From the NCBI GenBank assembly GCA_005882765.1, contig VBDV01000111.1, positions 49,545-113,544 on the forward strand: a DNA stretch of 64,000 nt. The letters are read 5' to 3'. This DNA is from Chloroflexota bacterium. Lineage in GTDB: Bacteria > Chloroflexota > Limnocylindria > P2-11E. This document shows positions 2,832 through 52,606 of the stretch, piece after piece. The notes below the pieces were generated by a model. That model was not told the origin of the DNA. It saw nothing but the letters and a program-made list of their open reading frames with translations, and ran no database searches. The translations under genes and the position numbers were made by a program. Every line of letters begins with the position of its first letter. The first letter of the stretch is position 1.

Positions 2832-3560
2832 ATGTTCGATCTCTCTAAGCGCGCCGTAGTACTTACGGGCGCGACCGGAAATGTCGGGCCCGCCGTACTC
2901 CGTGCGTACCTCGAGCTGGGCGCCCACGTGGCGATACCGGTCCGAGAGGAGGCCAAGGGCGCCGCCCTGCGGGACTCGCTTGGTGACCTGGCCGGTACGG
3001 CAGAAGATCCGCGGATCCTCATGCGCGCCAGCGATCCAGGCGACGCCGCGGCGATGGAGGGCTTTGTCGAAGAGGTCCTTCGCACGTGGGGCCGTCTAGA
3101 CGTCGTCGCGAATCTCATCGGGGGATACGCCGCGTCGGACGCGGCCACCGGCGACCTCGCCGCCTACCGTCGCTACTGGGATCAGAAGGTGGCGACGATC
3201 GTGACTGCGACGACGGGGTGCCTGCGGCCGATGCGTGCGCGTGGCTACGGCCGCGTCGTGAACGTCGCCTCCACGGCCGCTCTCGAGGGAGAGAAGGGCG
3301 CCGCCGGCTACGCGATGGCGAACGCAGCGCTGCTTCGCTGGACGGAGTCGCTCGCCGAAGAAGTGAAACGCGAGGGGATCACTGCGAACTGCGTGCTGCC
3401 GCGCATCATCGACACGCCTGAAAACCGAGCCGCTATGCCCAAAGCCGATCCATCGCGATGGGCGACCGCGGTCGAGATCGCCGCGCTCGTCGTGTTCTTG
3501 TCTACGGACGAAGCGAGCGGGATTACTGGCACGGCGACACCGATAGTGGCTCGAACGTGA
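2832..3560 (+). CDS. SDR family NAD(P)-dependent oxidoreductase
   Basis: VVLTGATGNVG Rossmann motif and SDR core. The track ORF starts at 2763 and would overlap the dxs start, so the internal Met at 2832 is preferred. Confidence 0.8.
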   Translation: MFDLSKRAVVLTGATGNVGPAVLRAYLELGAHVAIPVREEAKGAALRDSLGDLAGTAEDPRILMRASDPGDAAAMEGFVEEVLRTWGRLDVVANLIGGYAASDAATGDLAAYRRYWDQKVATIVTATTGCLRPMRARGYGRVVNVASTAALEGEKGAAGYAMANAALLRWTESLAEEVKREGITANCVLPRIIDTPENRAAMPKADPSRWATAVEIAALVVFLSTDEASGITGTATPIVART

Positions 3561-30443: not shown

Positions 30444-31511
30444 CTAGCGCAGACGCTCGCGCGGGACGACGATGCGCACCGTCGTTCCCTCCCCGGGTTT
30501 GCTTTGCACTTTGCACAGCCCTCCCAGAAAGGCCACTCGCTCTCGCATCCCAAGAAGTCCGAAGTGTCCTGGGCGCACGCCTGCTTCGCCCCACTGTTCT
30601 GTCTCGAAACCATGTCCGTCATCGCCTACGTCTATCTCGAGGGTCTCTTCATTTTTCAGCAGAGCCAACCGCACTTCGTGCGCCGCGGCGTGCTTCTTCA
30701 CGTTGTTCAGGGCTTCAACGGCCACGCGATAGAGCGTCGACTCCGCCTCTCGCGAGAGGGGACCGGGATCGTCGAGCGCTTCCTCGAGCGTCCAGCCGGC
30801 CTCGTCGGCCATCTCGCGTGCCGCAGCCGACAGCGCGGCCACCAGACCAAGGTCGTCGAGGGTGGCTGGTCGGACAGTTCCGAGGATCTCGCGCGTCTCG
30901 CGGATCGCGCGGCGGAGCAGCTCGGTCGCCTTTCCGACCTGGACGTTCTCCACGCCGGCGCTCTGGAGCTGTGCGTGGGCGGACACGAGGATCGGAGCGA
31001 GTCCGTCGTGCAGATCGCGCGCAAGGCGGCGCCGATTTTCTTCCTCTTGTGAGAGAAGCTGTCCGGTGAAGTGCTGAAGGTCTCCGTACAGCTCCATGCG
31101 TTCGATGGCGAACGCCGCCTGGTCGCCGAGGATGCGGAGAAAGGCGATCGCATCGTTGCCGGGGTGGCTCTGGCGGTTGACATTGAGGACGCCCTGCGTT
31201 TTTGCGGCGACGAGCAGCGGTATGCAGATCGCAAAGGGAACATCCTTTGTGTAGGGCGTTCCAAGCTCTGTCGACGCCGCACCTTCGATGATCAGCGGCT
31301 CGCGTCGTTCGAGCGCCTGCCACGAGATGGACGGCCCGACCGCGACACGCGTTCCGACGAGACGCCCGGGACGCGACGCGCGGACGATGAGCGCATCGCC
31401 CGCGGCGTCGACGGTCATGAGGGATGCCGACTCATAGGTGACCGCCTCGTGAGCCGCCTCGAGTACGAGGTCAAACAGCTCGTCGGGACTCGCGGCGTTC
31501 CCGATGCGCAC
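30444..31511 (-). CDS. cytoplasmic sensor histidine kinase (GAF + HisKA_3 + HATPase)
   Basis: GAF domain, then the LHDGLAP H-box and C-terminal N/G boxes. No TM. Confidence 0.85.
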   Translation of the reverse strand: MRIGNAASPDELFDLVLEAAHEAVTYESASLMTVDAAGDALIVRASRPGRLVGTRVAVGPSISWQALERREPLIIEGAASTELGTPYTKDVPFAICIPLLVAAKTQGVLNVNRQSHPGNDAIAFLRILGDQAAFAIERMELYGDLQHFTGQLLSQEEENRRRLARDLHDGLAPILVSAHAQLQSAGVENVQVGKATELLRRAIRETREILGTVRPATLDDLGLVAALSAAAREMADEAGWTLEEALDDPGPLSREAESTLYRVAVEALNNVKKHAAAHEVRLALLKNEETLEIDVGDDGHGFETEQWGEAGVRPGHFGLLGMRERVAFLGGLCKVQSKPGEGTTVRIVVPRERLR

Positions 31512-31549
31512 TGTCGCGCGCTCGAGCGAGCGGAGCAGCGTGGAGGGGG

Positions 31550-32203
31550 TCAGGTCGCTGTCGACGACTCGACGAGGCCGTTGCGCACCGCGTAGATCGC
31601 AGCCTGCGTGCGATCCGAGACGTTCAGCTTTTCGAGGATCGCCGCGACGTGACTCTTCACAGTCTCCGGCGATAGAACGAGCTTGTCCGCGATCTCGCGG
31701 TTGCTGAGGCCTTCGGCGACGAGTGCAAGGATCTCGCGTTCGCGCTTGGTGAGGCTGCGCGCCGCGGGCGAGGTCGTGGAGCCGGGCTTCATCTCGGAGA
31801 GCATTCCCTTGAGCATCTGCGATTCGATGAAGGCGCCGCCTGTCGCCACCTGGCGGATCGCGTCGATGAGGTCGTCCTTCGAAACGTCTTTAAGAAGGTA
31901 TCCCGCAGCGCCGGCCCGCACGGCCTCGCGCAGGTATGCCGGGTTGTCGTGCATCGTCACCATGATGACCGCGGTCCGCGACCGCTCTTCCTTGATACGC
32001 CGCGTCGCCTCGAGTCCATCCATGTCGGGCATGCGCACGTCCATAAGCACGACATCGGGCAGCTCCTTGCGAGCCGTCTCGATCGCCTCGCGCCCGGTCT
32101 TGGCCTCGCCCACGACGGTGAGGTCTTCGGCCTTGGCGAGCATGGACGCGACACCCTGCCGCACGAGCTCGTGGTCGTCGACGAGAAGCACACGGATCGT
32201 CAT
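31550..32203 (-). CDS. NarL/LuxR family response regulator
   Basis: VLLVDDH...VLMDVRMPDMDG receiver and an LTKREREIL...SPETVKSH HTH. Confidence 0.9.
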   Translation of the reverse strand: MTIRVLLVDDHELVRQGVASMLAKAEDLTVVGEAKTGREAIETARKELPDVVLMDVRMPDMDGLEATRRIKEERSRTAVIMVTMHDNPAYLREAVRAGAAGYLLKDVSKDDLIDAIRQVATGGAFIESQMLKGMLSEMKPGSTTSPAARSLTKREREILALVAEGLSNREIADKLVLSPETVKSHVAAILEKLNVSDRTQAAIYAVRNGLVESSTAT

Positions 32204-32224
32204 CGCCGTGATTCTAGGGGTCGA

Positions 32225-32686
32225 TCAGACGACGGCGGTCCAGATGAGATAGAGAAGCAGGCCCGCGAGCACAAGGAGGAGCACGCCGATCCCCCACAGA
32301 GCCAACGTGCCAGCCTCGGTCTGCACCGATCCTGTCAACAAGCGTTCTACAGCACGCACCAGGTCGTCCGACGGCGCGTCCTTTGCGACCCATCCCTGCG
32401 GCTTGTCGACAGACCGCTCCGCCGCGGCCGCCTCGGCCGCTCCGCCAGCGAGTATCAATGAGGAGACGCCAAGCTCGGCACGCCCATCCCGGCGAAGGAC
32501 CAGAGCATCGACCAGAGCGAGGTCTGCCGGCCAACTTCGGGCGAGGCTCACAGCCTCAGTGAGCTTGGCGGCGCGGCGAACCTCGTAGCGCCGTTCGAGC
32601 CGCAGGATCGTCTCGATCCCCGCTCCGACGCTCGGATGTGAGACGACCAGGAGGACCCTCGGTCGGTTGATGGCCGGACGATACAC
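32225..32686 (-). CDS. tail-anchored pseudo-receiver protein (degenerate REC domain + C-terminal TM helix)
   Basis: VLLVVSHP replaces the DD acidic pocket. LALVD, S and K positions are kept. C-terminal LALWGIGVLLLVLAGLLLYLIW is a TM helix. It has a paralog at 56593..57105. Confidence 0.6.
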   Translation of the reverse strand: MYRPAINRPRVLLVVSHPSVGAGIETILRLERRYEVRRAAKLTEAVSLARSWPADLALVDALVLRRDGRAELGVSSLILAGGAAEAAAAERSVDKPQGWVAKDAPSDDLVRAVERLLTGSVQTEAGTLALWGIGVLLLVLAGLLLYLIWTAVV

Positions 32687-32774
32687 CGTTGTTCGGTTCC
32701 GCTACATCGGGCATACGCCGTTCCTCCCCCTCCTGTCTGATGCCTTGTAACAGCCAAAAACCGACTCTTTCCTC

Positions 32775-35700
32775 GTGCCAAAGCGAATCCTCATCGCGGA
32801 CGACCATCTCGCGGTACGCGAGGGCCTCCGCTCGCTCATCGATCCCGACCCTGACTTCAAAGTCGTGGGCGAGGCGTCGGACGGGAACGAGGCCGCCCGC
32901 AAGGCGCTTGAGCTCCGCCCGGACCTGATCGTCCTCGACAACTCGATGCCGGGCATGACCGGTCTCGAGGTCGCGCGGATGCTCCGCGACAACCTCCCGC
33001 AGACCAAGATCGTCTTCCTCACGCTCGACCCCGGCATCCGCGACCTTGCCCTCGCGACAGGCGCGGCTGCGCACGTCTCAAAGGACCAGCCCCCGCAGGA
33101 AATCATGCGGGTGGTCCGTGCCGCGGTCGGCATAACGACCCCGAAGGCTCAAGCCACCCAGCCATCGAGCGCGCAGGCCAAGCTCGCGGAGCTTCTCATC
33201 TCGGAGAAGCTCCTCACCTCGCGCCAGATCCAGGACCTCGACCGCTTGCGCACCGGGCGGCAAACCCTTTCGAACGCGATCCTGCGCTCGGGCCTCGTCG
33301 ACGAGGAGTCGTTCGCGAACGCGGTCGCTCGTGTGAGCGGCCATCCGGTCACCTCGCTTCGCGTCGCGCCCGAGGCAGCGGTCATCCGTCAGCTGCCGCG
33401 TCGCTTCTGCGAGCTTCGCGCCGTTGCGCTCGTTGAGTTCGGACGCACGAGCGCGACCCTCGCCATGGCCGACCCGCTCGATGAAGCGGCGGAGCGCGAA
33501 GCCAAGGACATGCTCGGCGAGATTGGCCTCACGGTCGTCACCGCGACGCTCACCGAAGTTCGTGATGCGATCCACCGCGCGCATGCGCCTGCTCTCGTGC
33601 CGCTTGTCGCGGTACCGACGCTTCCGCAGAAGCGGACACGACGTCGGCTCGCGCTCGTCGCTGTGCTCGCTGCGGCGCTCCTGTTGATCGCGACCAGCAC
33701 GGGGGTTCTCTTGAACCAGACCACCGTCGTCGCGGCGCGGGCGAATCTCACGATCTTCCAGGGCACGGTCGACGTCCGACACGGATCTGCGAATTTTGTC
33801 GCGGCCTCGACGAACGACCTCGTCGAGCAGGGCGACACGATTCGCACCGCCTCGGGCGGGCACGCCGCGCTCACCTTCTTCGACCGGTCACTCATAGTCC
33901 TCGAGCCCGACACGCAGGTCGTTCTCGAAACGCTCCGCACGGTTGCGGGCGGGCGCGACATTGACCTCGTCCTCCGTCAGGTGACTGGCAAGACGTGGCA
34001 CGTCGTCGCGCACAGCATCGGCGATGGCGGGCGCTACGAGGTGCTCACCCCGACGTCGACGAACACCGTCCAGGGCACCGCGTTCCAGGTGCGCATCGAC
34101 ACGGTAGGTCGGACTGTCGTCAGCACCACCGACGGCACGGTGCGGACGTTCGGCACCGACACCGCGGTTCCGCCGGTCCTCGTCGCCGCAGGTATGCAGA
34201 GCACGGTCTCGCAGACCGGGCCGTCCGCAGCCTCGCCGATCACCGACCCGACGCTGACCTTCACGTTCGAGGACGCGACTCAGGCTTTCGTCGTGAACGC
34301 GGCCGGGCAAGCTGCCGGAACGAAGGAAGGAGCGACTCTTCGCTACATCCCCGGGTCCGAGATCGCGCAGGACAACGGCCGCGTCGTCGTGACGATCCCG
34401 GGTTCGGACGCGGGACGATTCAGCTCGATCGTTGCACCGAAGGGCGATGTCGCGCAGGTACGCATCGCGACCGTGCTGAATCAGGGCGGAAACGCAACCA
34501 CCGTCACCGAGACAAGGCCGGTCGAAAACGGCGCTGCTAAGGGCGGCGTCACCGTCACCGGCACAACGATCGTGATGCTGAGCGACTCGGCAGCTAAGGC
34601 CGCGACTGCACCGATCGTCGCCAGCGCGCCGCCGTCTCCGACTCCTTTCAACCCGCTCACCCTCATCTCGCAGGGTCCGCAGGGCAATCTCGGACCTGCC
34701 GGTCCGGTTGGTCTGAATGGCGAGCCGGGCGCGCAGGGTCCTCCCGGCCCGGCGGGTCCGACCGGCGCGACCGGCGCTCCCGGCACAGCGGGAGCTCGCG
34801 GCGTTGCCGGATCTGCGGGCGCGGCCGGGGCTGCGGGCGCCGACGGCGTTGCCGGTGCGAACGGAGCTCCTGGCTCTCAGGGTGCGGCAGGCGCTGCGGG
34901 TCCCGCGGGCCTCGCTGGGGCGGCTGGTCCTGCGGGCGCGACCGGTCCAAGTGGTGCTGTTGGCGCGACCGGAGCGACCGGCCCGACCGGGGCGAATGGG
35001 TTGGACGGCGCCACAGGTGCGTCGGGTGCCAATGGACTCGACGGGGCAACCGGTGCGACCGGTGTTACCGGTGCGACCGGTAACAATGGTGTTGACGGGG
35101 CTACTGGCGCGACGGGTGCCACCGGACTCGATGGTGCCACCGGTGCTGTCGGTGCGACTGGCGCGATCGGCGCAGTCGGGCCGACCGGTCCACAAGGTCC
35201 GACGGGTGCGACGGGTGCGACGGGCGCGGCCGGTAACAATGGTGTTGACGGCGCGACCGGCGCGACTGGCGCGACCGGTGCAACGGGCGCGGTTGGCGCG
35301 ACCGGTGCGCAGGGCCTGACGGGAGTTACCGGTGCAACGGGTGCCACCGGTAACAATGGTGTTGACGGGGCGACCGGAACAACCGGTGCGACCGGAGCGA
35401 CTGGATCTGTCGGCGCGATTGGACCAACTGGTCCCCAAGGCCCAACCGGAGCAACTGGTGCGACTGGCCCCACCGGGGCAGCCGGCGCTAACGGAACAAA
35501 CGGCGCGACGGGGGCGACCGGTGCAACTGGTGCAGCAGGCGCCAACGGAGCCAACGGGGCGACCGGTGCAACAGGCGCAACCGGCGCGGCCGGCGCAAAC
35601 GGAACAAATGGTGCGACTGGTGCGATTGGTGCGACTGGCGCCACCGGGGCAGCCGGCGCCAACGGCGCAAACGGCGCGACGGGCGCGACCGGTGCAACCG

Positions 35701-38700
35701 GAGCTGCCGGTGCAGCCGGTGCCGTTGGACCAACAGGTCCTCAGGGTCCGACCGGCGCAACGGGCGCGACCGGTGCAGCAGGCGCGAACGGCACAAACGG
35801 CGCGACGGGCGCGACAGGTGCAACTGGCGCTGCTGGTGCCGTCGGCGCGGTAGGGCCGACGGGTCCGCAAGGTCCCACCGGCGCGACCGGAGCTCCGGGC
35901 GCAAACGGTAGCAACGGCGCCACCGGTGCTACGGGCGCAACCGGTGCGACCGGTGCAGCTGGCGCGAATGGGACGAACGGCGCTACCGGCGCCACCGGTG
36001 CGACAGGCGCCGCAGGCGCAAACGGATCTAACGGTGCGACCGGCGCAATCGGCGCCACCGGCGCAACTGGTGCGGCGGGCACGAACGGCGCCACAGGGGC
36101 TACTGGTGCGACGGGTGCTACCGGTGCCGCCGGCGCAAACGGATCGAATGGTGCGACCGGCGCCACGGGTGCAACTGGTGCCGCCGGAGCAGCTGGCGCT
36201 GTCGGTCCGACAGGTCCGCAGGGTCCGACCGGCGCGACGGGCGCGACTGGAGCGACCGGTGCTGCGGGTGCCAACGGATCTAACGGTGCCACCGGTGCGA
36301 CGGGCGCCACCGGCGCGACCGGTGCCGCCGGTGCGAATGGCTCGAACGGCGCAACGGGCGCCACCGGTGCAACTGGTGCAGCAGGGGCGAATGGTTCGAA
36401 CGGCGCGACCGGTGCGACGGGGGCAACCGGAGCTGCCGGTGCAGCCGGTGCCGTTGGACCAACAGGTCCTCAGGGTCCGACCGGCGCGACTGGCGCTACC
36501 GGCGCGACGGGTGCGCCTGGGGCGAACGGGACGAACGGCGCCACGGGTGCAACTGGTGCAACGGGTGCGACAGGCGCCGCAGGCACAAACGGATCGAACG
36601 GCGCGACCGGTGCCACTGGTGCGACCGGCGCAACTGGCACCGCGGGGGCGGCGGGTGCCGTTGGCCCAACTGGTCCTCAGGGTCCGACCGGTGCAACTGG
36701 GGCGACTGGCGCGACTGGTGCCGCAGGTGCAAACGGATCCAACGGTGCGACGGGTGCGACGGGCGCAACCGGTGCAACTGGCGCCGCTGGCGCGAACGGG
36801 ACGAACGGCGCGACCGGTGCGACTGGCGCCGCCGGCGCAAACGGATCGAACGGTGCGACCGGCGCCACGGGCGCAACCGGTGCCGCCGGAGCAGCTGGTG
36901 CTGTCGGTCCGACCGGTCCGCAGGGTCCGACCGGCGCGACGGGCGCGACTGGAGCGACCGGTGCCGCGGGTGCGAACGGATCTAACGGCGCGACCGGTGC
37001 GACAGGCGCAACTGGTGCCGCCGGAGCCGCAGGCGCTGTCGGTCCGACAGGTCCTCAGGGTCCGACCGGTGCGACGGGCGCGACCGGTGCGACGGGTGCT
37101 GCAGGATCGAACGGCGCCGTCGGTGCGACGGGCGCGACCGGTGCGACGGGTGCGGCGGGCTCAAACGGCGCCGTCGGTGCGACCGGCGCGACCGGTGCGA
37201 CGGGTGCTGCAGGATCGAACGGCGCCGTCGGCGCGACGGGCGCAACTGGCGCGACGGGTGCTGCAGGATCGAACGGCGCCGTCGGCGCTACGGGCGCAAC
37301 TGGCGCGACGGGTGCTGCAGGATCGAACGGCGCCGTCGGCGCGACAGGGGCTACTGGCGCGACCGGTGCCGCGGGCGCCAATGGATCGAACGGCGCGACG
37401 GGCGCCACCGGCGCGACTGGTGCTGCTGGCGCCGCTGGTGCGGTCGGCCCAACAGGTCCTCAGGGTCCGACTGGAGCGACCGGCGCAACTGGTGCAACTG
37501 GTGCGGCTGGCGCAAACGGGTCAAACGGTGCGACTGGTGCAACGGGAGCCACCGGCGCAGCAGGTGCCGCCGGTGCGGCCGGAGCGGTCGGCCCCACCGG
37601 TCCTCAGGGTCCAACGGGTGCAACCGGGGCCACGGGCGCGGCCGGCGCAAACGGATCGAACGGTGCCACGGGCGCAACTGGCGCGACCGGCGCTGCAGGT
37701 GCCGCAGGCGCTGTTGGTCCAACAGGTCCTCAGGGTCCGACCGGTGCGACAGGCGCGACCGGTGCAACGGGTGCTGCCGGAGCGAACGGAGCGGTCGGCG
37801 CGACTGGTGCAACAGGTGCTACCGGTGCGACAGGCGCAGCGGGCTCAAACGGGGCGGTCGGCGCCACCGGCGCGACGGGTGCGACGGGTGCAGCAGGATC
37901 GAATGGAGCCGTCGGTGCAACAGGTGCTACCGGCGCGACAGGTGCGGCGGGCTCAAACGGCGCGGTCGGCGCCACCGGCGCGACCGGCGCAACTGGTGCG
38001 ACCGGTGCAACTGGTGCAACTGGTGTGACGGGTGCGACGGGTGCTGGGCTGAGTGATGTTCAGCAGGACGGCGTCTCGAAGGGCACGCAGAACACGCTGA
38101 ACTTCACGAATGGCTTTACTGTCACGAACACCGGCTCGAAGATCCAGATCGACGGATCCGGTTTCGTCCACACGACGGGCACCGAGTCAATTGCCGGCGA
38201 CAAGACGCTGAGCGGTAACACGACGTTCACAGGCACGACGACCGTGAACAACGCGACCACGACCGGAACGGCCTCTTCGATCAGCACCGGCAACGGCCTC
38301 ACCACCGGTCAAGCGCTCAACGTGAGCACCGGCAGCTCGACATTCACGAACGGGAACACCCAAGACAACACCAACGCGACGCGAGGTTTCTTCTACGGCG
38401 GCGCGTCGAACTCGTACGCAGGCGCAAACACGTTCTCGAGCACCGGCAACTTCACCGGAACCCTCGTCGCGCTCACCGCGGACCAGACCACCGCCGGAAC
38501 GGTCCTCGGCATCAGCGCGCAGAACCTCACCACTGGCAAGGCCCTCGACGTCTCGCTCGGCACCCTCTACTCAGGACAGACCGATACGGTCGGCGGATAC
38601 ACGATCGGCGCGGTCAACGTGCGCGCGCAGTCCTTCACCGGGAACGTCTTCAACGTCTCGGCGTCCGGTGCCGCCTCCTCGACGGGCAACCTCGCAAACC

Positions 38701-40232
38701 TGTCAAGCACTCAGCTCGCAGGAAATGTGCTGAAGGTGACCGGCAACAGCCTCACGACCGGCACGGCGATCAACGTCTCGGCGACCGGGCTCGCGGCGGC
38801 CGGCAAGGCCGTCAGCGTCGTGGTCGGGACGGCTGGCACGCCGATCTTCGTGAACACCGCGAACCTGTACTCGGGCAACCTCGTCGACCTGCAGGTGAAC
38901 TCAGTCTCCAAGTTCAGTGTCGACCAGACCGGTCAGCTCACGCTCGCGGGGAATCTCCTCGTTCGAGGCGGGACGATCACCGGGCCAACGAGCGGCACCT
39001 TCACGATCGACAACGGCAGCGCGCAGCCGATCGCCATCGGCACGACGACCGCGACAACCATCAACATCGGCCAGTCGGGCCAGGCGCAGAACCTGCTCGG
39101 CAACGCGACCGTCTCCGGTACCCTCGGCGTGACCGGAAACTTCTCGGTGAACACCAACAAGTTCAACGTGACCGCGGCGAGCGGTAACACGACCGTCGCC
39201 GGCACCCTCGGCGTGACCAGCGACCTCACGGTGAACACGAACAAGTTCATCGTCACGGCACTGACCGGAAACACGACGGTGGGCGGCACCCTCTCGGTGC
39301 TCGGCGCGACCATCACGGGCCCGACGAGCGGCACGTTCAGCATCGACGGTGGCTTCGCCGGCGGCGCGCTCAACGTCGGTACCACCGCGAACACGGGCAC
39401 CGTCACGATCGGCCGCAGCGGTCAGACGCAGGCGCTCGCCGGTAACGCCACGGTCGTAGGCACGATCGCAGCGGGCGGCAACATCAGCACGACTGCCGGC
39501 GGCATCACGATCACCGGCAACAGCACGATTGCCGGCCTCACTTCGAACGGCGCCGGCAATGCGCCGACGTTCCAGGCCGCGGCGGGCACGGCGTCGAACG
39601 TGGTCGTGCTCACGACCGGCGCTACGAGCTACACCCCGAGCGCGGGCACGCTCGCGATCCTCATCGAGTGCGTGGGCGGCGGCGGTGGTGGCGGCGGTGC
39701 GCAGGGCAACGCCACGCCGAGCGCCTCGGCTGCCGGCGGCGGCGGCTCGGGCGCCTACTCCGTGGCGTACCTCGCGTCGCCCAGCGGCTCGTACACCGTG
39801 GCGATCGGTGCTGCGGGCGCAGGCGGCAACGGCACCAGCGGCGGCGCCGGCGGCACGACGACGTTCGGCACCTCGCCGAACTTCAAGTGCAATGCCAACG
39901 GTGGCTCAGGCGGGCTCAATATGGCTCTCGGCACGACAGTGACGTACCAGGCGGGCGGCGCGGGCGGGACCGTGACGGCCTGCACGCCGGCGTGCCTCAT
40001 GCAGTCGACCGGTGGCCCGGGCGAGTACGCGGTGCGTGCCTCGGGGAGCATCTCAGTGGCCGGGAGCGGTGGCAACAGCCACCTTGGCGGCGGCGGTTAT
40101 CTCGCCGGCACGGGCGCAGGAGGCGCGGGCACCTTCGGCGGCGGCGGCGGCGGCGCGAACTCGAACACCACGGCCAACAACGTCGGCGGCGCCGGCGGCG
40201 CCGGGGTGATCCGCATCACCGAGTACAAGTAA
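32775..40232 (+). CDS. giant 2485-aa membrane protein: REC – T2SSE_N-like – TM – FecR – collagen-like (~375 G-X-X triplets) – T/G/N-rich fibre-like region – C-terminal poly-Gly domain
   Basis: A single uninterrupted ORF. N-terminal IADDH...[13 protein letters not shown] NarL-type receiver (aa 1-120). A GspE-N-like domain (aa ~135-265). TM at aa ~291-313. FecR-like domain (TIFQGTVDV...GDTIRT). G-X-X from aa ~634 to ~1760. Then a β-rich repetitive region, and a C-terminal GGGGGGGG...[15 protein letters not shown]. Confidence 0.85.
34674..38050 (+). repeat. ~3.4 kb of coding tandem repeat DNA (GGN-GCN-ACN/GGN... encoding G-X-X triplets) with higher-order ~45-aa periodicity
   Basis: Periodicity visible directly, e.g. 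recurring ...[45 protein letters not shown]... blocks. Confidence 0.85.
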
Positions 40233-40259
40233 GCTGCCGCGTCTCGTAGGCTCCGCGCG

Positions 40260-40775
40260 TTGAAGGACGCCATCGTCATCCCAGTCAGTGCGCTCCGCCG
40301 CATCTTCGTGACGCTTCTCGTACTGATCGTCCTGATCCTGCTCGTGCTCGTTATCCGCACGCAGCTCTTCCGCGCGGGCGTGGCCTCGCTCTTCGCGCCC
40401 AGCGCCGCCGAGGTGATCGATCGGAACGCCTATCAGGCCGTCTTCCTCACGAACGGTGCGACGTATTTCGGAAAACTCCAGCCACAGGGCGACGACTGGT
40501 TTCTCCTCACCGACGTTTTTTACCTCTCCGCGTCCGATCAGACCAGTACCCAGCTCATCAAGCGGGGCAGCGAGGCGCAGGGTCCAAAAGAGCCGATGAT
40601 CATCTCGAAGGAGCAGGTCCTCTTCATCGAGAACCTGCGCGACGATGGTGACATCGTCACGCTGATCAAGAAATTCAAGTCCGGCCAGGTCCCTTCGGCC
40701 AGCCCGCCGCCGGCGACTGCCGCGCCGACGACCTCACGACCTAGCGCGACCCCGAGCGCGAGTGCGTCCCGCTGA
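40260..40775 (+). CDS. small N-terminally membrane-anchored protein, paralog 1 of a 3-gene tandem family
   Basis: TTG start. TM (LLVLIVLILLVLVI). Conserved core YQAVFLTNGATYFGKL...VFYL...IKRGSEAQGPKEPMIISKEQVLFIENL. Confidence 0.55.
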   Translation: MKDAIVIPVSALRRIFVTLLVLIVLILLVLVIRTQLFRAGVASLFAPSAAEVIDRNAYQAVFLTNGATYFGKLQPQGDDWFLLTDVFYLSASDQTSTQLIKRGSEAQGPKEPMIISKEQVLFIENLRDDGDIVTLIKKFKSGQVPSASPPPATAAPTTSRPSATPSASASR

Positions 40776-40861
40776 GCAGGCTTCGTTTCGCGTACCGCCG
40801 CCCAGTCCGTTGGCTCCTCGAACATCGCCGGCGCCTTCGCGACGTCGCGCTCGCGCTCGTT

Positions 40862-41203
40862 GTGTTCGCCGCCGCACTGTTCTTCACGCAGTGGTGGGAC
40901 TTCACCGTCCCGGCGCTCGGCCGCGCGCAATACCAGGCGGTGTTCCTCACGAACGGTCAGACGTACTTCGGTCGCTACTACGACCGGTTCGGGGCGTACG
41001 CGAAGATCGAGGACGTCTACTACCTGCAGCAAGGACAGGCCACCGACTCGGGTGGCACGACGGACACACGAATCATCCGGCGCGGCCACGAGCTGCACGA
41101 GCCGAGCTCGCGGATGCTGATCCCGAAGTCGGCGATCCTCTTCGTCGAGGATTTGACTGACTCGTCGCCGATCGCGCAGTTCATGCAGCGAGACGCGCGA
41201 TGA
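40862..41203 (+). CDS. paralog 2 of the tandem family
   Basis: YQAVFLTNGQTYFGRY...VYYL...IRRGHELHEPSSRMLIPKSAILFVEDL. The first canonical start is GTG 40862, and the N-terminus may begin upstream at a non-canonical start. Confidence 0.5.
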   Translation: MFAAALFFTQWWDFTVPALGRAQYQAVFLTNGQTYFGRYYDRFGAYAKIEDVYYLQQGQATDSGGTTDTRIIRRGHELHEPSSRMLIPKSAILFVEDLTDSSPIAQFMQRDAR

Positions 41204-42102
41204 GCCTCTATGACCCCGAGCGCGATCGAGTACGGATCGCCGGCCGATGGCTCCGATGGGGACTCGCCTGGGTCGGCATCCCTCTCGTGCTCGGTGTTTT
41301 TGTATCCGCAAACGTCGACGTTCGGTCCCTCCCGCTCTTCGGGCCTGAGCGAATGTCCGCGGTCCTGTTCCTCGACGGTCAGGCCTACTTCGGCCATCTT
41401 GATGACTCGGGTGAGAACGGCACGCTCGTGCTGAGGGATGTCTACTATTTCAAGAACAGCGAGGGCGGGGTGACTGGCGTGCCGGTGGGCCTGGTTCGTC
41501 GCGGAACGGAAGCCCATGAGCCCGCCGACGGTATGCGCATCAACCGCGATCGCATCCTCGCGATCGAGCGCGTGGGTCCTATATCGGCCGTGGCGCAAGC
41601 GATCCAGGTGGAACGCGAGCTCATTCACGCTCCGCCGGGAAACGTGTCGCTCAACCGGACTGCGGTCGCGGGCGCTCCGGCATTGGCGGCCCAGCGGGTC
41701 GCCGCGGAGCACGACATCGCGCGGGCGTGGACCGCGGCGGTCGACCAGCTGCGCAAGCTCAACGATCTCGTTCTTCCAGTGACGAAAGCGGAGGCGGACC
41801 AGATCACCGCAAAGGCGATCGCGGACCTGCGAACCGTCCGCCAAAACGCGCTCGCTGCGCTTGCCGCGCAGGTCGGGATGTCCGCCGCGGAAGCGGATGC
41901 CTACGTCCGCGCGACCGATCCCCTCCTTGAGGGACAAAGCTTTTCCACTGACGCGGGGGTCCTCCTCGCCCCAGATGTCGACGCGATCGTCACACGGGCG
42001 ACGCAGCTCTATACGCAGGTCGGTGATGCGGCCGCGAAGCAGCTCACACAGGCGAAGACCGTCTCGCCGACGCCGACACCCACACCTTCGCCAAAGCCCT
42101 GA
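41200..42102 (+). CDS. paralog 3 of the tandem family (longer, with a C-terminal extension)
   Basis: ATGA overlap with paralog 2. TM, then AVLFLDGQAYFGHL...VYYF...VRRGTEAHEPADGMRINRDRILAIERV, plus a ~180 aa Ala-rich tail. Confidence 0.6.
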   Translation: MSLYDPERDRVRIAGRWLRWGLAWVGIPLVLGVFVSANVDVRSLPLFGPERMSAVLFLDGQAYFGHLDDSGENGTLVLRDVYYFKNSEGGVTGVPVGLVRRGTEAHEPADGMRINRDRILAIERVGPISAVAQAIQVERELIHAPPGNVSLNRTAVAGAPALAAQRVAAEHDIARAWTAAVDQLRKLNDLVLPVTKAEADQITAKAIADLRTVRQNALAALAAQVGMSAAEADAYVRATDPLLEGQSFSTDAGVLLAPDVDAIVTRATQLYTQVGDAAAKQLTQAKTVSPTPTPTPSPKP

Positions 42103-42123
42103 CGCCGAGCCAGGCCGGGCGAC

Positions 42124-42789
42124 CTAGCTGGCGGCGTTTTCTGATGCCGCGCCAGTGAGATCGATGAGCCTCGGGGCCGCGTCGATGTCGCTTTGGAACG
42201 CGAGCGCGATGGCCTGCGCGCGGCTGTGCACGCCGAGCTTGAGAAGGATGTGCTCGATGTGCTTCTCGACTGTCTTCGGCGTGATCACCAGATCACGCGC
42301 GATCTCCGCAGGATCGAGACCGCACGCGAGTAGCCGCAGGATCTCCAGCTCGCGCCGGGTGAGCCCGGCGACGACCGTCCGCGGGAGCGGGCGCGCGCGT
42401 CGCGCGAGGCGTTGTACGCGGGCGAGGAGCTCGTCCAGCACGAATGGCTTGATCATGTAGTCGTCGGCACCAAGCAACATGCCGGCAACCCGATCCATCG
42501 ACTCCTTGCGCTCGCCTGAAATCAAGATGATCCCAATGCTGTCGCCGTAGTCATCGCGTAGCCGCCGGCAGAGCTGATATCCCGAGATGTCCGGGAGATG
42601 CACGTCGAGCAGCACGACATCGGAGCTTTCACGCTGGATGAGGTACAGCGTCTCGCGCGCATCGGACGCGCGTCGCGTCATGAAGCCGTGCTCGGCGAGT
42701 GTCGTCGCGATGAGCTCGCAGATAACGGGGTCGTCGTCAACGACGAGCACTCGACCACGCGGCCGCCTGAGCGCTGACATAACGAGAAG
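42124..42789 (-). CDS. LuxR-type response regulator
   Basis: VLVVDDDP...VLLDVHLPDISG receiver and an LTRRELEILRLLACGL HTH. The start is taken at an internal Met, but the track ORF extends to 42903. Confidence 0.75.
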   Translation of the reverse strand, partial: LLVMSALRRPRGRVLVVDDDPVICELIATTLAEHGFMTRRASDARETLYLIQRESSDVVLLDVHLPDISGYQLCRRLRDDYGDSIGIILISGERKESMDRVAGMLLGADDYMIKPFVLDELLARVQRLARRARPLPRTVVAGLTRRELEILRLLACGLDPAEIARDLVITPKTVEKHIEHILLKLGVHSRAQAIALAFQSDIDAAPRLIDLTGAASENAAS

Positions 42790-43022
42790 GGCCACGCTTG
42801 CAAGAACCGCACCCAGGCGTGCTTCACAAGAAATATTGAGCGCAAGGACCGTATTTGATCGCATCGCTTGCCTTCGGCGTGCCCCGTACGACGTGTTCCC
42901 CATGAGGTCGTGCGGTGAAAAGCCGGTCGACGCCGCTCACTGCCTCGTGCGCGCGTTCGTAGCGTCCACGCGGTCGGCCCGCTAGGCCGACGAATTCTCT
43001 GCAAGGAGGCAGATCGGACGCA

Positions 43023-43727
43023 ATGCGAAACGCACTCACGCAGCGCATCACGCGATCGCGCCCGCGCGGATGGATCGCACCCGTCGTCGCCGTCATGGCT
43101 CTCGGCGTGGCGCTGCCCGCGAGCGTCGTCCTAGGTCGGGTCGAACCACTGTCCGCGCAGCCGGCCGCCGCGGCGATGAGCCCGGACACGGTTGCCATCG
43201 TCACTGGAGGCGGCACGGTGATCGTCACTGAGGGCACGATGAACGTCGTCGCGAGCTTCGGGCTGAACGCCCGGCGCCCTGACGGCTTCACCGGCGGCGG
43301 CATCGCATCAGGGCGGGTCAACTACGACGAGCACGCGAACGTGGCCAGCCGCCATGTGAACGCTCCGGTAGCGCTCATGCAGGCGGCTATGTCTGGGTCG
43401 CCGACGCCGAACGGCACCGGCGGCAGCGCGGCGATGTCGGCGGACTGCACGCCCCCGGCGGAATGCCCCTCGGGCTTCAACTCGGTGATCGTCTACGTCG
43501 AAGACAACGCCGACTCAGGTGCGACCTTCGATGTCTTCAAGATCTTCTTCTGCACATTTGGTCCGTTCCTCCCCGGGCCAACGTTCAACGGCAGCACCGC
43601 CCCGGCGAGCTGCATCGGGCCTGAGGGCAACACACTGCGCACCGGGAACATCCAGGTGCGGCAAACCATCACCGGCAGCAGCGCGAGCGTACCGACGGCC
43701 GCTCGTGCGCCGTTGCGTCTGCCATGA
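43023..43727 (+). CDS. secreted hypothetical protein
   Basis: Signal peptide, Gly/Thr-rich, no domain. Confidence 0.45.
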   Translation: MRNALTQRITRSRPRGWIAPVVAVMALGVALPASVVLGRVEPLSAQPAAAAMSPDTVAIVTGGGTVIVTEGTMNVVASFGLNARRPDGFTGGGIASGRVNYDEHANVASRHVNAPVALMQAAMSGSPTPNGTGGSAAMSADCTPPAECPSGFNSVIVYVEDNADSGATFDVFKIFFCTFGPFLPGPTFNGSTAPASCIGPEGNTLRTGNIQVRQTITGSSASVPTAARAPLRLP

Positions 43728-47900: not shown

Positions 47901-50900
47901 ATGGCCTTCAACGCCATCGCTCTGCTCCCCGAAGTGACCGGCGCGGTCCCGAATGTGAACGACGACGCCGAACATGCGCTGTTCATCCAGCAGGCATCCG
48001 ATGCGTGGGCGAGCGGACAGGACCCGCTCGACTTCTGGGTCCCGCAGGTGGAGCTCGGCTTTCCGCAGTTCCTCTACTACCAGAACCTTCCACATCTGGT
48101 CGTCGTCGTCCTCGGCAAGCTGACCTTCGGTCTCATCTCACTGCGGACCCTTTTCGATCTCGTCCGGTACGTGCTGCTCGTCGGTTTCCCGCTGACCGTG
48201 TTCTGGTCGATGCGGCGCCTGGGCTTCTCCGATGTTGCCGCGGCCATCGGTGCCGCGGCGGGATCCCTGCTAGGGGGGAACCACCGTTACGGCTTCGAGT
48301 ACGACAGCTACGTTTGGCGCGGTCTCGGTGTCTACACGCAGATCTTCGGCATGCATCTCTCGTTTCTCGCGCTCGCGGCGCTGCATCGTGTGGCGACGCG
48401 AGGCACCGGCATCGTCGTCGCCGCGCTGGTCTGCGGCGCGCTCGCCCTGTCGCACCTGATCTACGCGTACATGGCCGCGATCACGGCGGTCGTACTCCTG
48501 CTATTCGGTCTCACGCGCGCGAACATCGCCGGCCGAGTGCTGCGCTTCGGCGCGGTCGGCGCCCTCGCCGGCGTGATCAGCGCGTTCATGTGGGTCCCGT
48601 TCTTCGCGCAGGCCGGGTACCTGGATGTGAGCCCGTACCTCGATCGGACGAAATACGATTCCTTCGGCGCCCCGACGATCCTGGGCTGGCTCGCCTCAGG
48701 CGACCTCCTCGATCACGGACGCCTTCCGGTGCTCACGGCGTTGCTCGGGGTGGGGATCGTCGCCGCGCTCGTGACGCGCGCGCGGCTTCTTCTCCTCACG
48801 CTCGTCCTCTTCGTCCTGTGGCTCGTCCTCTACTTCGGACGGCCGACCCTTGGCCCGCTCGCCGATCTTCTGCCGCTGCACGAGGGACTGCTCTTCCACC
48901 GCTTCATTGGAGGCGTCGATCTCTTCGCGATATTGCTCATCGGCGCGGGCGGGGCGTACCTGTGGGAAATTGCTCGTTTCGAGGTGTCACCACGGCGCCT
49001 CGCAGCCGTGGCGGCGGCGACCGCGATCGTGTTCGTGCCGGTTCTTGCCGAGCGCTGGTCCTACTACAGCGACAACGCGACGTGGATGCGCATCACCCAG
49101 GCCGCCATCGCCGCCGATACGGATCTGCGGAGCGTGATGAGCGCGCTCGCGGGACAGTCGGCGGGCCGCGCGTACGCGGGACTCCGCAGCAATTGGGGAG
49201 ACACCCTCGACTTCGGGATTCCGTTCCGCTCGGTCCGCGTCTACAACGTGCTCACGTTCGATCGCGTCGATGCCGTCGCGCCGCCGTACCGTGGCGCGTC
49301 CCTGAACTCGGACCTGCTCTTCGATTTCAACGATCAAGACCCGGCCCAGTACCGTCTCTTCGACGTGGCGTACGTCATCGCGCCACCTTCGGCAACGCTC
49401 GCCTCGGGTCTCGTGCCAGTCCTTTCGACGCCGAAATACGTCCTCTACCGCGCGCCCGGCGGCGGGTATGCGGAGTACGCGGCGATCTCGCGGAGCGAGG
49501 CGCCCAAGAGTCAGCCGGAATGGTTCGAGAGCGCTCGAGCATGGCTTCGGGGCGGTTCGGCGACGAGCTGGGAGTTCGTGCGATACGCCTATCGCGACTC
49601 TCGCCCGATCGACGTCCCCGTTCCGATCGCCGAGTGCCCGCGCCCGGCCATCTCGTACCAGCGCGCCCAGCCGGGCCGGTACGACGTCCTCGCGACCTGC
49701 GCGACCGACTCGGCCATGGTGCTGAAAGTGACTTATCACCCGAACTGGCACGTGACCGTCGACGGCCATGAGGTTGCGACCTTCATGGTCTCGCCGAGCT
49801 ACCTCGCGTTCGCTCTCCCGGCGGGGCAGCACTTCATCACGGCGGAGTACCGATCGGCGCCAGTCAAAGATTCGCTGTTCTTTCTCGGCGCCGCGGTGGC
49901 GCTCGGCGCCATCGGCTCCCGGATCCGCCTGCGGGTGCCGCGACCCCGCGGCTGGCGCACCAGCATTCCATCCCTCCGCGAGCCGATCCTTCGCGCGCGC
50001 GACCTCGTCCTGATGAACGAGTCCGTCGCCGGGCCCGCGCTCGCCGTGGCAATCGCGGCGGTCGCGTTCCTCGTACTTGCGCCGTTCACGCCGCGCATCG
50101 CGTTCAACGATGGGCTTGGATTCGACGGTCGGGTCTACGCGTGGCTCACGCAGGCCCTGCGAGGTGACCACAGCGTCGCGGTCGTGCCACCGTGGTCGTT
50201 CCGCCTCGTCCCGAGCGCGATCGTCGCCCTATCCGGTCTTGAGGTGAAGCTCGGTTTCCTCCTCCTCGACCTCTTGGCGGCCCTCGGAAGCGCGTGGCTC
50301 CTTTACCGCCTGCTCCGGCACTACGCCGTCTCGCCGGCGCTCTCGCTCCTCGCCGTGGGCTGGTGGGCGGTGCTGCCACTCGGCCTGCGGTGGGCGCTCT
50401 ACTACCCGGTCCTTCCGGACACGCTCGGCTTCTTCCTTCTTCTCGCGCTCATGGTGTGCGCGCTCGAGGGTCGGTTCGTTGTGTTCGGCGGCATCCTGGT
50501 CGTCGCGGCGCTCACGCGCGAGAATCTCATCGCGCTCGGCCCGTTCCTCTGGCTCCTCCACGTTCGGCGTGATCCCGTTGGCGTGACCCTTCGGAGCCTC
50601 GGCGTGGGCGCCCCCGCCGTCCTCGTCTACCTTGCGGTGCGTTTCTTCCCGGTCGTGCCGCCGCCACCGGATTTTGCGAACTGGGCGGAGCGCTACCAGA
50701 TCGATGTCAACCTTCGCTTCGTCTTCGAGAACATCGACGCGCATGCGTGGCGCTATGTACTCGCGGCGCCGCTCACCCTCGGGATGTTCTTCGCTCTGCC
50801 GTTCGCATGGCCGCGACGTCTCGCCGGGTTCCTCCGCCGGGAGCTCCACTGGGCGTACTACGTCGCCATGTCCTTCGTCGTCGCGCTGGTCGGCGGCCGC

Positions 50901-51221
50901 GACGACGATCGTTACCTCTACGTTCTCGTGCCCGCGCTCGCGGTCTTCGTTTTCCATATCGCGCCTTCGTCGCTATGGCGGTCCGCCTGGCGCGTCGTGG
51001 CGCTGACGGCGCTCCACCTCGCGGCCGTGCGCTTCTTATGGCCGGTCGGCACGAGCGAGGCCGAATATCTCCAGTACACCGTGTCGGCGATGAGCGTCGA
51101 TCGCATGGTCGCGCTCGTCTACTTTTGCGGCGCCCTCGCGCTTGGGGGGATCGCGATCGCTCGGCTGGATCTCGGCGCGCTCAGTCCCGCACGCCGAGCC
51201 AAAGCAGAAGCGTCGGCTTGA
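47901..51221 (+). CDS. 1106-aa polytopic membrane protein (YfhO-like N-terminal ~800 aa plus a second polytopic C-terminal module; glycosylation-associated)
   Basis: One uninterrupted ORF with >20 hydrophobic segments. A GT2 gene is adjacent and convergent. The family assignment is tentative. Confidence 0.55.
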   Translation: MAFNAIALLPEVTGAVPNVNDDAEHALFIQQASDAWASGQDPLDFWVPQVELGFPQFLYYQNLPHLVVVVLGKLTFGLISLRTLFDLVRYVLLVGFPLTVFWSMRRLGFSDVAAAIGAAAGSLLGGNHRYGFEYDSYVWRGLGVYTQIFGMHLSFLALAALHRVATRGTGIVVAALVCGALALSHLIYAYMAAITAVVLLLFGLTRANIAGRVLRFGAVGALAGVISAFMWVPFFAQAGYLDVSPYLDRTKYDSFGAPTILGWLASGDLLDHGRLPVLTALLGVGIVAALVTRARLLLLTLVLFVLWLVLYFGRPTLGPLADLLPLHEGLLFHRFIGGVDLFAILLIGAGGAYLWEIARFEVSPRRLAAVAAATAIVFVPVLAERWSYYSDNATWMRITQAAIAADTDLRSVMSALAGQSAGRAYAGLRSNWGDTLDFGIPFRSVRVYNVLTFDRVDAVAPPYRGASLNSDLLFDFNDQDPAQYRLFDVAYVIAPPSATLASGLVPVLSTPKYVLYRAPGGGYAEYAAISRSEAPKSQPEWFESARAWLRGGSATSWEFVRYAYRDSRPIDVPVPIAECPRPAISYQRAQPGRYDVLATCATDSAMVLKVTYHPNWHVTVDGHEVATFMVSPSYLAFALPAGQHFITAEYRSAPVKDSLFFLGAAVALGAIGSRIRLRVPRPRGWRTSIPSLREPILRARDLVLMNESVAGPALAVAIAAVAFLVLAPFTPRIAFNDGLGFDGRVYAWLTQALRGDHSVAVVPPWSFRLVPSAIVALSGLEVKLGFLLLDLLAALGSAWLLYRLLRHYAVSPALSLLAVGWWAVLPLGLRWALYYPVLPDTLGFFLLLALMVCALEGRFVVFGGILVVAALTRENLIALGPFLWLLHVRRDPVGVTLRSLGVGAPAVLVYLAVRFFPVVPPPPDFANWAERYQIDVNLRFVFENIDAHAWRYVLAAPLTLGMFFALPFAWPRRLAGFLRRELHWAYYVAMSFVVALVGGRDDDRYLYVLVPALAVFVFHIAPSSLWRSAWRVVALTALHLAAVRFLWPVGTSEAEYLQYTVSAMSVDRMVALVYFCGALALGGIAIARLDLGALSPARRAKAEASA

Positions 51222-51897
51222 CGATGCTCCACCAATCGCGGACCCGTCGGATCTTCGAGTAGTTGCCGCCGCCCTTGGGGTAGGTCTTCGAGACCCCGAC
51301 CTCGATGACGCGATACCCGAGCTTGATCGCTTTCCAGTGCACGTAGTACTCGAGCTCGTACCGGTCGAGCCACGACTGATCGATGCGGATCCGCGGATCG
51401 TCGAGCAACGACAGCCGGTACGCGCGGTACCCGTTTGTCACGTCGGTCCCGGCAAAGCCGGAAAGCAGGTGGAAGAGGATCGTGTATCCGCGGATCATGA
51501 GACCGCGACCGCGTGGCAGATAGACGCTTGAGCCGCCCTCGGCCAGGAACCGGGATCCCTGGACGTAGTCGTACCCGGCTCGGAGCTTATCGATGAGCCG
51601 CGAGGCCTCGGCCGGATCGTCTTTCCCGTTCGCCGCGAGCACGACGACCGCGCCGTGACCGCTCGCACGAGCCGCCTCGATACCCGTTCGGATGGCGGCG
51701 CCGACGCCCCGGCGCCGGTCCTGGGAGATCACCCGAGCGCCGGCCTCGCGCGCGAGGTCGGGCCCGCCATCGTCGGAACCGTCGTCAACAACGATCGTCT
51801 CCGAGATGATCGGCGGGACGCGACGGACGAGCCCGGCGATCGCGTGACGCTCGTTGAACAGCGGAAAGATCATCGCGACGGTCCCGATGTCGGCCAC
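51181..51897 (-). CDS. family 2 glycosyltransferase (polyprenol-phosphate sugar transferase, Dpm1-like)
   Basis: VVDDGSDDG DxD-type motif and a GT-A fold. Confidence 0.85.
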   Translation of the reverse strand: MADIGTVAMIFPLFNERHAIAGLVRRVPPIISETIVVDDGSDDGGPDLAREAGARVISQDRRRGVGAAIRTGIEAARASGHGAVVVLAANGKDDPAEASRLIDKLRAGYDYVQGSRFLAEGGSSVYLPRGRGLMIRGYTILFHLLSGFAGTDVTNGYRAYRLSLLDDPRIRIDQSWLDRYELEYYVHWKAIKLGYRVIEVGVSKTYPKGGGNYSKIRRVRDWWSIVKPTLLLWLGVRD

Positions 51898-51922: not shown

Positions 51923-52606
51923 TTAGCGGATCGGATCCTTCTCGAGCAGACCGCGGTTGTGCACGTAGAGGGCAGCCTGCGTGCGGTCGGTGAGCTCGAG
52001 CTTGCTGAAGATGTTCGAGATATGCGTTTTTACGGTGCGCTCGCTGATCCCGAGCGTCGCCGCGATCTCCTTGTTGGCTCTGCCGCTCGCCACGAGCTTC
52101 AACACCTCGCGCTCGCGTGCGGTGAGATCGCTGTAACCCTCGTCGTCGCCGGTGGGGCGGTCGCCGGCGCGCAACCGACCGAACTCATCGAGCACGCGCT
52201 TGGCGACCGACGGGTAGATGAGTGAGAAACCGTCGGCCACGGTGCGGATCGCGTTGGTGAGCTGGCTGCCGGTGACCTCCTTCAGGAGGTATCCCGACGC
52301 GCCCGCGCGAATCGAGCTGAACACCAGCTCGTCCTCGTCGTAGTTCGTGAGGACGATCACGCGCGACGACGGTACGGAGTTGCGCACGCGCCGCGTGGCC
52401 GTGACCCCGTCCCAGTCGCCCATCTTTATGTCCATGAGGATCACGTCGGGCAGAAGCTCCTGCGCCACGGCGAGCGCCTCGTGTCCGTCGCCGGCCTCGC
52501 CGACGACCTCTATCTCGGGCTCGGTCTCGAGTATTGACCGCAGGCCGCTGCGGACGAGGGCGTGATCGTCGGCGATGAGGACGCGGATCTTCCGAATCTC
52601 GCTCAT
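51923..52606 (-). CDS. NarL/LuxR family response regulator
   Basis: VLIADDH...ILMDIKMGDWDG receiver and an LTAREREVL...SERTVKTH HTH. Confidence 0.9.
   Translation of the reverse strand: MSEIRKIRVLIADDHALVRSGLRSILETEPEIEVVGEAGDGHEALAVAQELLPDVILMDIKMGDWDGVTATRRVRNSVPSSRVIVLTNYDEDELVFSSIRAGASGYLLKEVTGSQLTNAIRTVADGFSLIYPSVAKRVLDEFGRLRAGDRPTGDDEGYSDLTAREREVLKLVASGRANKEIAATLGISERTVKTHISNIFSKLELTDRTQAALYVHNRGLLEKDPIR

Follow-up and report, generated by a model that had tools for sequence, protein, structure and literature searches.

Tandem membrane-anchored proteins with a predicted Sm-like core adjoin a giant fibre gene in Limnocylindria and belong to a large uncurated family

This analysis concerns three tandem paralogous genes (P1, P2, and P3) directly downstream of a gene for a giant collagen-repeat protein, in a 64-kb stretch of DNA from a Chloroflexota bacterium of the Limnocylindria, here called the window. 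The family to which they belong is real, conserved, and uncurated, and its genomic association is reproducible; the core belongs by prediction to a class of fold already known, here in a cellular setting new to that class, and the function given below is a proposal. Judged by gene arrangement, the triplet is the tail of the giant-fibre operon in Limnocylindria. We tentatively propose that its products are stoichiometric membrane-anchored Sm-like subunits, probably ring-like, forming a base or assembly partner of giant surface proteins. Such a partner role is argued for by the paralogy, purifying selection, and translational coupling of the genes, their synteny, the fold model, and an excess of large open reading frames (ORFs) downstream of family genes.

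The + strand ORFs 40260..40775, 40862..41203, and 41200..42102 are all present in the window. With the extent of the second revised as explained below, and with core limits taken from hidden Markov model (HMM) envelopes, the features are as follows; TM stands for transmembrane and aa for amino acids.

32775..40232, + strand: giant protein, 2485 aa, with Response_reg, MshEN, TM helix, FecR, about 1370 aa of collagen repeats, a post-collagen region, and a Gly-rich tip (Pfam).
40260..40775, + strand: P1, 171 aa, TTG start; short N-terminus, TM helix (residues ~14-32), predicted Sm-like core, Pro/Ala/Ser/Thr-rich tail.
40407..40688, + strand: P1 core; in the model, six beta-strands and then a C-terminal helix.
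40772..41203, + strand: P2, revised extent, 143 codons counting the proposed CTG start.
40907..41200, + strand: P2 core, E 1.6e-37.
41200..42102, + strand: P3, 300 aa, ATG start; TM helix, predicted Sm-like core, helical C-terminal region, PT-rich tail.
41329..41625, + strand: P3 core, E 2e-29.
41674..42048, + strand: P3-specific C-terminal helical region, residues ~159-283, four long helices.

The three proteins had been put forward in a preliminary description of this DNA as paralogs sharing a conserved core, and pairwise BLASTP bears this out (P1/P2, E=8e-20 with 39 % identity; P2/P3, E=6e-14; P1/P3, E=5e-12). Their alignment has 18 invariant columns and recovers the proposed consensus, YQAVFLTNGxTYFG...DVYY...RGxE..EP...M.I...LF.E. 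The family HMM finds exactly three copies within the window. The core is larger than the ~70 aa first proposed, as the HMM envelopes span about 95 aa. All three cores and the C-terminal region of P3 are under purifying selection, with a ratio of non-synonymous to synonymous substitution rates (dN/dS) of about 0.05-0.37 and dS near saturation, and the P3 region is kept in all Chloroflexota loci by tblastn.

It had also been stated that the core could not be assigned to a known family, and this stands. P1, P2, P3, and one Saccharibacteria homologue have no match in Pfam-A, NCBIfam, PHROGs, or PADLOC beyond sub-threshold noise from TM and low-complexity segments, and the family profile finds noise only among PDB sequences. 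The source names met for family members are all "hypothetical protein". The family is nevertheless very large. A profile of the three cores matches 1275 clusters at 90 % identity, relatives of P3 number 515, and a Saccharibacteria member used as the query gives 2874 matches. An HMMER search, exhaustive over 1.84 billion representatives, returned 3304 clusters at 50 % identity with E <= 1e-3, 2517 of these with E <= 1e-10. P3 itself is 100 % identical to P0121, from a metagenome-assembled genome (MAG) of a soil "Chloroflexi bacterium". In a scan of GTDB with one genome per species, the best 80 of 340 relatives fall into Ca. Limnocylindria/Chloroflexota (55-86 % identity) and many Saccharibacteria (TM7; 44-50 %). 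No description of the family or of the giant-triplet operon was found in the literature, and searches on Limnocylindria collagen, Saccharibacteria Sm-like proteins, and periplasmic Sm-like folds returned nothing relevant.

Copy number separates the two groups of loci. By six-frame HMM count, P1, P2, and P3 occur in the same order in 31 of 31 Chloroflexota loci, and a single copy is found in 52 of 53 Saccharibacteria loci. A neighbour-joining tree recovers each paralog as a single clade and places P1 as sister to the Saccharibacteria form, the two having 46 % identity; the paralogs are 30-35 % identical to one another. From this topology and the fixed copy number and order, the triplication is old and fixed, with P1 as the ancestral-like copy. 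P2 and P3 are divergent duplicates, and the three paralogs are ancient and non-redundant. A groundwater Chloroflexi locus (L028) has a fourth copy downstream of the triplet (2998-3303), with 31-37 % identity and about equidistant from the other groups. A natural fusion of two core domains (P0471) looks to be a genuine two-domain protein, unlike P0042 (P2 N-terminus with P1 core) and P0386 (P2 with P3), which are probably assembly chimeras or frameshifts rather than genuine fusions. Three contigs are probably mis-binned: L005 is labelled Saccharimonadales yet has a Limnocylindria-type triplet with 85 % identity, and L069 (Dongiaceae) and L081 (Methylomirabilota) have single copies of the Saccharibacteria type.

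Linkage to the giant gene is strict in the Chloroflexota. The regions encoding REC/MshEN, TM/FecR, collagen, and post-collagen segments are found by tblastn directly upstream of the triplet wherever the contig is long enough. The gap between the giant ORF, with its end at 40232, and P1 measures 27 nt; across the window, L001, L003, and L004 it is 12-41 nt, and no terminator-like site was found on the + strand within 32000-43200. In L001, L003, and L004, genes for a histidine kinase (HK), a response regulator (RR), and a 153-aa protein are on one strand, and the giant gene followed by genes for 171, 114-142, and ~295 aa proteins is on the other. That P1 shares the reading frame of the giant ORF, as had been pointed out, is true in the window and in L003, but the frames differ in L001 and L004; since the shared frame is not conserved, it is a coincidence, and readthrough from the giant ORF into P1 was rejected.

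The N-terminal TM segment described for all three ORFs is present in P1 and P3, whereas P2 as originally delimited has only half of one. Read from GTG 40862, P2 begins MFAAALFFTQWW, and its best 19-aa window has a mean Kyte-Doolittle (KD) hydropathy of 1.07. The in-frame codons 5′ of this GTG read ...LSRLRFAYRRPVRWLLEHRRRLRDVALALV, giving an Arg-rich segment and the missing half of the TM helix. ATG, GTG, and TTG are all absent from this in-frame stretch in the window, and in several related loci there is no canonical start anywhere before the P2 TM helix. In 29 of 31 related loci, the stop codon of P1 and the frame of P2 overlap in an NTGA at the identical position, as CTGA (20 loci), ATGA (6), TTGA (2), or GTGA (1); in the window it is CTGA, at 40772-40775. 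Full-length P2 orthologues, of 139-144 aa, bear the Arg-rich/TM N-terminus, and the extension is taken to be coding because its dN/dS is 0.13-0.46 against 14 loci. Due to the conserved overlap, the complete TM helix, and the coding extension, P2 most likely starts at CTG 40772 by termination-reinitiation, use of this start codon being predicted from sequence comparison. GTG 40862 was rejected as the start, as it loses the Arg-rich N-terminus and half of the helix and the overlap position is conserved. Conservation of CTG at this position suggests routine CTG start use through termination-reinitiation.

The ATGA overlap reported between P2 and P3 is present at 41200-41203, and the corresponding overlap is ATGA or GTGA in 31 of 31 related loci. 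Through these overlaps the triplet is translationally coupled at both junctions.

The fold of the core was predicted with AlphaFold2. For residues 46-143 of P1, with a 54-sequence alignment, the model has a mean predicted local distance difference test (pLDDT) score of 85.2 and a predicted template modelling (pTM) score of 0.78, and it shows the bent five-stranded antiparallel beta-barrel of the Sm type; DSSP assigns six strands and, at 86-97, a C-terminal helix, and the model also contains a hairpin additional to the Sm/LSm/Hfq fold. The fold matches are dominated by RNA-binding Sm/LSm/Hfq proteins, and the FLTNGxTYFGKL segment (NGxxYFGxL) is in register with the Sm1 motif of Hfq. The nearest structural match, PDB 3by7, which we take to be the five-fold unit of TIP60, matched alongside the designed TIP60 cage. 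The five-fold building block of TIP60 has been described as a putative Sm-like protein (PMC12389965). On the strength of the model, we are confident in predicting an Sm-like fold for the core domain. In the model of P3, the TM helix (10-36) is followed by the core (52-124), a helix (130-143), and four long helices (159-283).

Arg/Lys-rich N-termini precede the TM helix in P2 (from the CTG start), in P3, and in the Saccharibacteria protein, therefore an N-in/C-out orientation is predicted by the positive-inside rule. The charge pattern of P1 is ambiguous, and its topology is taken from homology. The core is thus predicted to be extracytoplasmic on a single-pass N-in/C-out anchor, which speaks against cytoplasmic RNA binding by the core in P2, P3, and the Saccharibacteria form.

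Specificity of the family for collagen/FecR proteins does not hold, as most members are single-copy in Saccharibacteria, where the loci contain no detectable part of the giant protein. The co-occurrence with collagen-repeat or FecR proteins for which an HMM search had been proposed is found in every Chloroflexota locus with enough upstream DNA, and in the Saccharibacteria the neighbours are other giant surface proteins. In 54 clustered Saccharibacteria loci, the family gene is followed by a gene for a conserved ~232-aa TM protein in convergent orientation (42 loci), beyond which lies, in 30 loci, a gene for a ~990-aa protein with Gly-rich and carbohydrate-binding module (CBM) segments and, in 14 loci, one for a ~1880-aa Kelch/poly-Gly protein. 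With contig ends allowed for in this and the following counts, the 232-aa gene is one of the first three genes after the family gene in 38 of 47 loci. An ORF of at least 700 aa, on either strand, is found within four genes downstream of the family gene in 34 of 40 loci and upstream in 4 of 36 (Fisher p = 7e-11, the loci being phylogenetically non-independent); counting convergent (- strand) ORFs of at least 700 aa alone, it is 32 of 40. At least three unrelated types are represented among these large neighbours, and each type has an N-terminal signal or anchor segment. Where a single MAG has two copies of the family gene (L051 and L084), each copy adjoins a paralogous N-anchored protein of 1.3-1.9 thousand aa, and in L051 the family gene and the large-protein gene are co-directional.

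The ~232-aa protein (L030-L084; for example L061, 10356-11072, - strand) is TM-anchored, its gene lying between the family gene and the large gene in 38 of 47 loci. It has no Pfam or NCBIfam match, and its gene is probably co-operonic with that for the large surface protein. The S. epibionticum homologue could not be located in transposon sequencing (Tn-seq) tables through synteny with the ATP synthase operon, as synteny differs there and the tables give no sequences.

Taken as a mechanism, each paralog would hold a ~95-aa outward-facing small beta-barrel of the Sm/Hfq type, with its C-terminal helix, 10-20 residues above the membrane. P1, P2, and P3 would be made in fixed proportion through stop/start-overlap coupling and would join side by side, as is typical of Sm-fold proteins, into a ring-like hetero-oligomer facing outward from the cytoplasmic membrane, to which P3 would contribute its helical extension. 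This ring would be a platform on which the giant protein, itself anchored by its N-terminal part, is docked, assembled, or stabilised at its membrane-proximal base. In Saccharibacteria, one gene would provide a homo-oligomeric equivalent for other giant N-anchored surface proteins. Fold precedent, translational coupling, and synteny are the grounds for inferring an oligomer and its contact with the giant protein; ring assembly is hinted at by the five-fold relation of 3by7 and TIP60 and by the tandem-domain fusion in P0471. A bolder extension, which we regard as quite unlikely, is that an extracellular membrane-anchored Sm-like ring constitutes a new basal collar module for giant N-anchored fibres and adhesins. 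It would be homo-oligomeric and widespread in the Saccharibacteria, members of the candidate phyla radiation (CPR), and in Limnocylindria a 1:1:1 hetero-ring matching the trimeric collagen fibre, where the REC/MshEN head could couple phosphorylation or cyclic di-GMP (c-di-GMP) to fibre display.

Several results weigh against a partnership of Sm-like subunits with giant proteins. By BLASTP and tblastn, no module that might serve for docking was detected in common between parts of the giant protein, or other proteins of the window, and the Saccharibacteria neighbours. The family gene and the large gene point towards each other in most Saccharibacteria and do not form one operon, and because the loci are non-independent, inherited synteny could explain much of the adjacency. 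As to the fold, no N-terminal Sm helix precedes the strand at 14-18 in the P1 model by DSSP. Pfam LSM and Hfq give no match at E<=10, and profile similarity by hhalign is not significant (probability 0.7 % against an Hfq alignment and 0.1 % against SmAP1), therefore any Sm kinship is at the level of fold only. The P3 model has a pLDDT of 62 overall, with 70-89 in the C-terminal helices.

Some of these results would also be expected of a family with a general housekeeping role in the envelope of monoderm Chloroflexota and Patescibacteria, such as an SH3b-like wall-binding or a Sec-proximal factor, whose adjacency to giant genes reflects inherited synteny or a hot spot for surface proteins. The convergent orientation in most Saccharibacteria and the lack of homology among the large neighbours fit this well, as does the size of a family so widely kept in single copy in reduced Saccharibacteria genomes. 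It is nonetheless rather unlikely, as every Limnocylindria locus has the triplet, translationally coupled, at the 3′ end of the giant operon, large-gene adjacency outlasts both replacement of the type of large gene and duplication of the family gene, and the upstream control gives only 4 of 36. No Pfam match to SH3b (SH3_3/SH3_4/SH3_5-type) or wall-binding domains was found, and the best fold matches are not to SH3b.

The surroundings of the operon bear on a role in signalling. The giant protein combines a cytoplasmic receiver and MshEN, a TM helix, FecR, and ~1370 aa of Thr-rich collagen, as in a surface fibre with its own signalling head; MshEN domains are of a c-di-GMP-binding type. This domain combination was not found described in the literature, and a search on collagen, FecR, and response regulators together returned nothing relevant. 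Two pairs of a GAF-HisKA_3 kinase and a LuxR-type RR and one orphan LuxR-type RR surround the operon in the window (30444-32203, 42124-42903, and 51923-54756), the orphan being convergent with P3 and 21 nt from it; the HK/RR arrangement recurs in L003 and L004. The triplet could accordingly be read as acting in signalling, its products binding or modulating the giant FecR from outside the cytoplasm and relaying a surface signal to REC/MshEN or to the flanking GAF-HK/LuxR-type pairs, and the FecR of anti-sigma factors does bind small partner domains at the membrane, as in the Fec system. We consider this decidedly unlikely, given that the Saccharibacteria homologues have no FecR, REC, or MshEN partners, that the paralogs have almost no cytoplasmic portion through which a signal could be transmitted, and that a Pfam scan finds no similarity to a known FecR partner domain.

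The opposite topology, with cytoplasmic Sm/Hfq-like RNA-binding proteins tethered to the membrane, is very improbable: it would suit the mostly RNA-binding fold matches and the register with Sm1, but the Arg/Lys-rich N-termini predict the core to be outside, the Hfq/SmAP profile similarity is not significant, and tails such as the Pro/Ala/Ser/Thr-rich one of P1 and the PT-rich one of P3 are typical of extracytoplasmic linkers.

Other features of the giant-gene region were noted. The Gly-rich tip of the giant protein (window 39643-40229, aa ~2290-2485) is found in only five related loci, with 95-96 % identity in L007 and L008 and ~50 % in L011, L022, and L038. By sequence comparison, strains appear to have exchanged the fibre tip, much as happens with variable adhesins or heads that bind receptors, and adjacency of the triplet to the giant gene persists though this module is swapped. 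The divergent 153-aa protein (32225-32686, - strand) has a weak, sub-threshold receiver-domain similarity, a C-terminal TM helix, and no Pfam assignment; it adjoins the giant gene in Limnocylindria loci with 38-80 % identity. Downstream, at 47901-51897, are genes for a 1106-aa YfhO-like membrane protein and a family-2 glycosyltransferase (GT2), both also present in L004, and L001 has GT2, DUF2304, and PTPS_related genes. The YfhO-like and GT2 genes are candidates for a glycosylation system working outside the cytoplasm, with the Thr-rich collagen fibre as a possible substrate.

Comparison with known systems places the proposed partnership of the triplet and giant proteins among several partial likenesses. 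The soluble 3by7, an uncharacterised metagenomic Sm/LSm-like protein without a TM anchor, has only 13-18 % identity and no sequence-level match. Unlike the ring-forming RNA chaperones Sm, LSm, and Hfq, the core is predicted to lie outside the cytoplasm on a membrane anchor, it lacks the N-terminal helix and gains a hairpin and a C-terminal helix, and RNA binding would be implausible outside the cell. The BclA collagen-like fibre of Bacillus has basal-layer partners, and a gene for a Thr-rich collagen-like surface fibre with small partner genes is common to both systems; no sequence or fold relation to the BclA-type accessory or anchoring genes was found, however, and here the giant fibre brings its own anchor, the N-terminal TM helix, together with a cytoplasmic REC/MshEN, its candidate partners being TM-anchored and Sm-like. 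Small genes directly downstream of a long fibre gene also recall the assembly chaperones of phage tail fibres, but there is no PHROG match, the top 50 BFVD fold matches are only to uncharacterised Sm-like viral proteins with no annotated chaperone among them, the triplet has membrane anchors, and free-living and epibiotic bacteria carry the locus on the chromosome. Of the accessory, chaperone, or anchoring role suggested in the preliminary description, the dedicated accessory part is partly supported, by the strict giant linkage, the coupling, and the absence of a terminator, and the chaperone part has no structural support, given an Sm-like fold without fibre-chaperone matches in PDB or viral structures.

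These data give a very large unannotated family, of 3304 clusters at 50 % identity, a predicted fold and a testable role, and they correct a gene model through the proposal of a conserved CTG start at a stop/start overlap. The family is widely single-copy in the genome-reduced Saccharibacteria, whose envelope biology is mostly unknown, and is fixed in soil Limnocylindria as a cassette of three genes. Should its partnership with giant proteins prove real, it would be a rare case of the Sm fold working outside the cell, and would supply a missing component for mounting very long adhesins and fibres on the bare cytoplasmic membrane of monoderm "dark-matter" bacteria.

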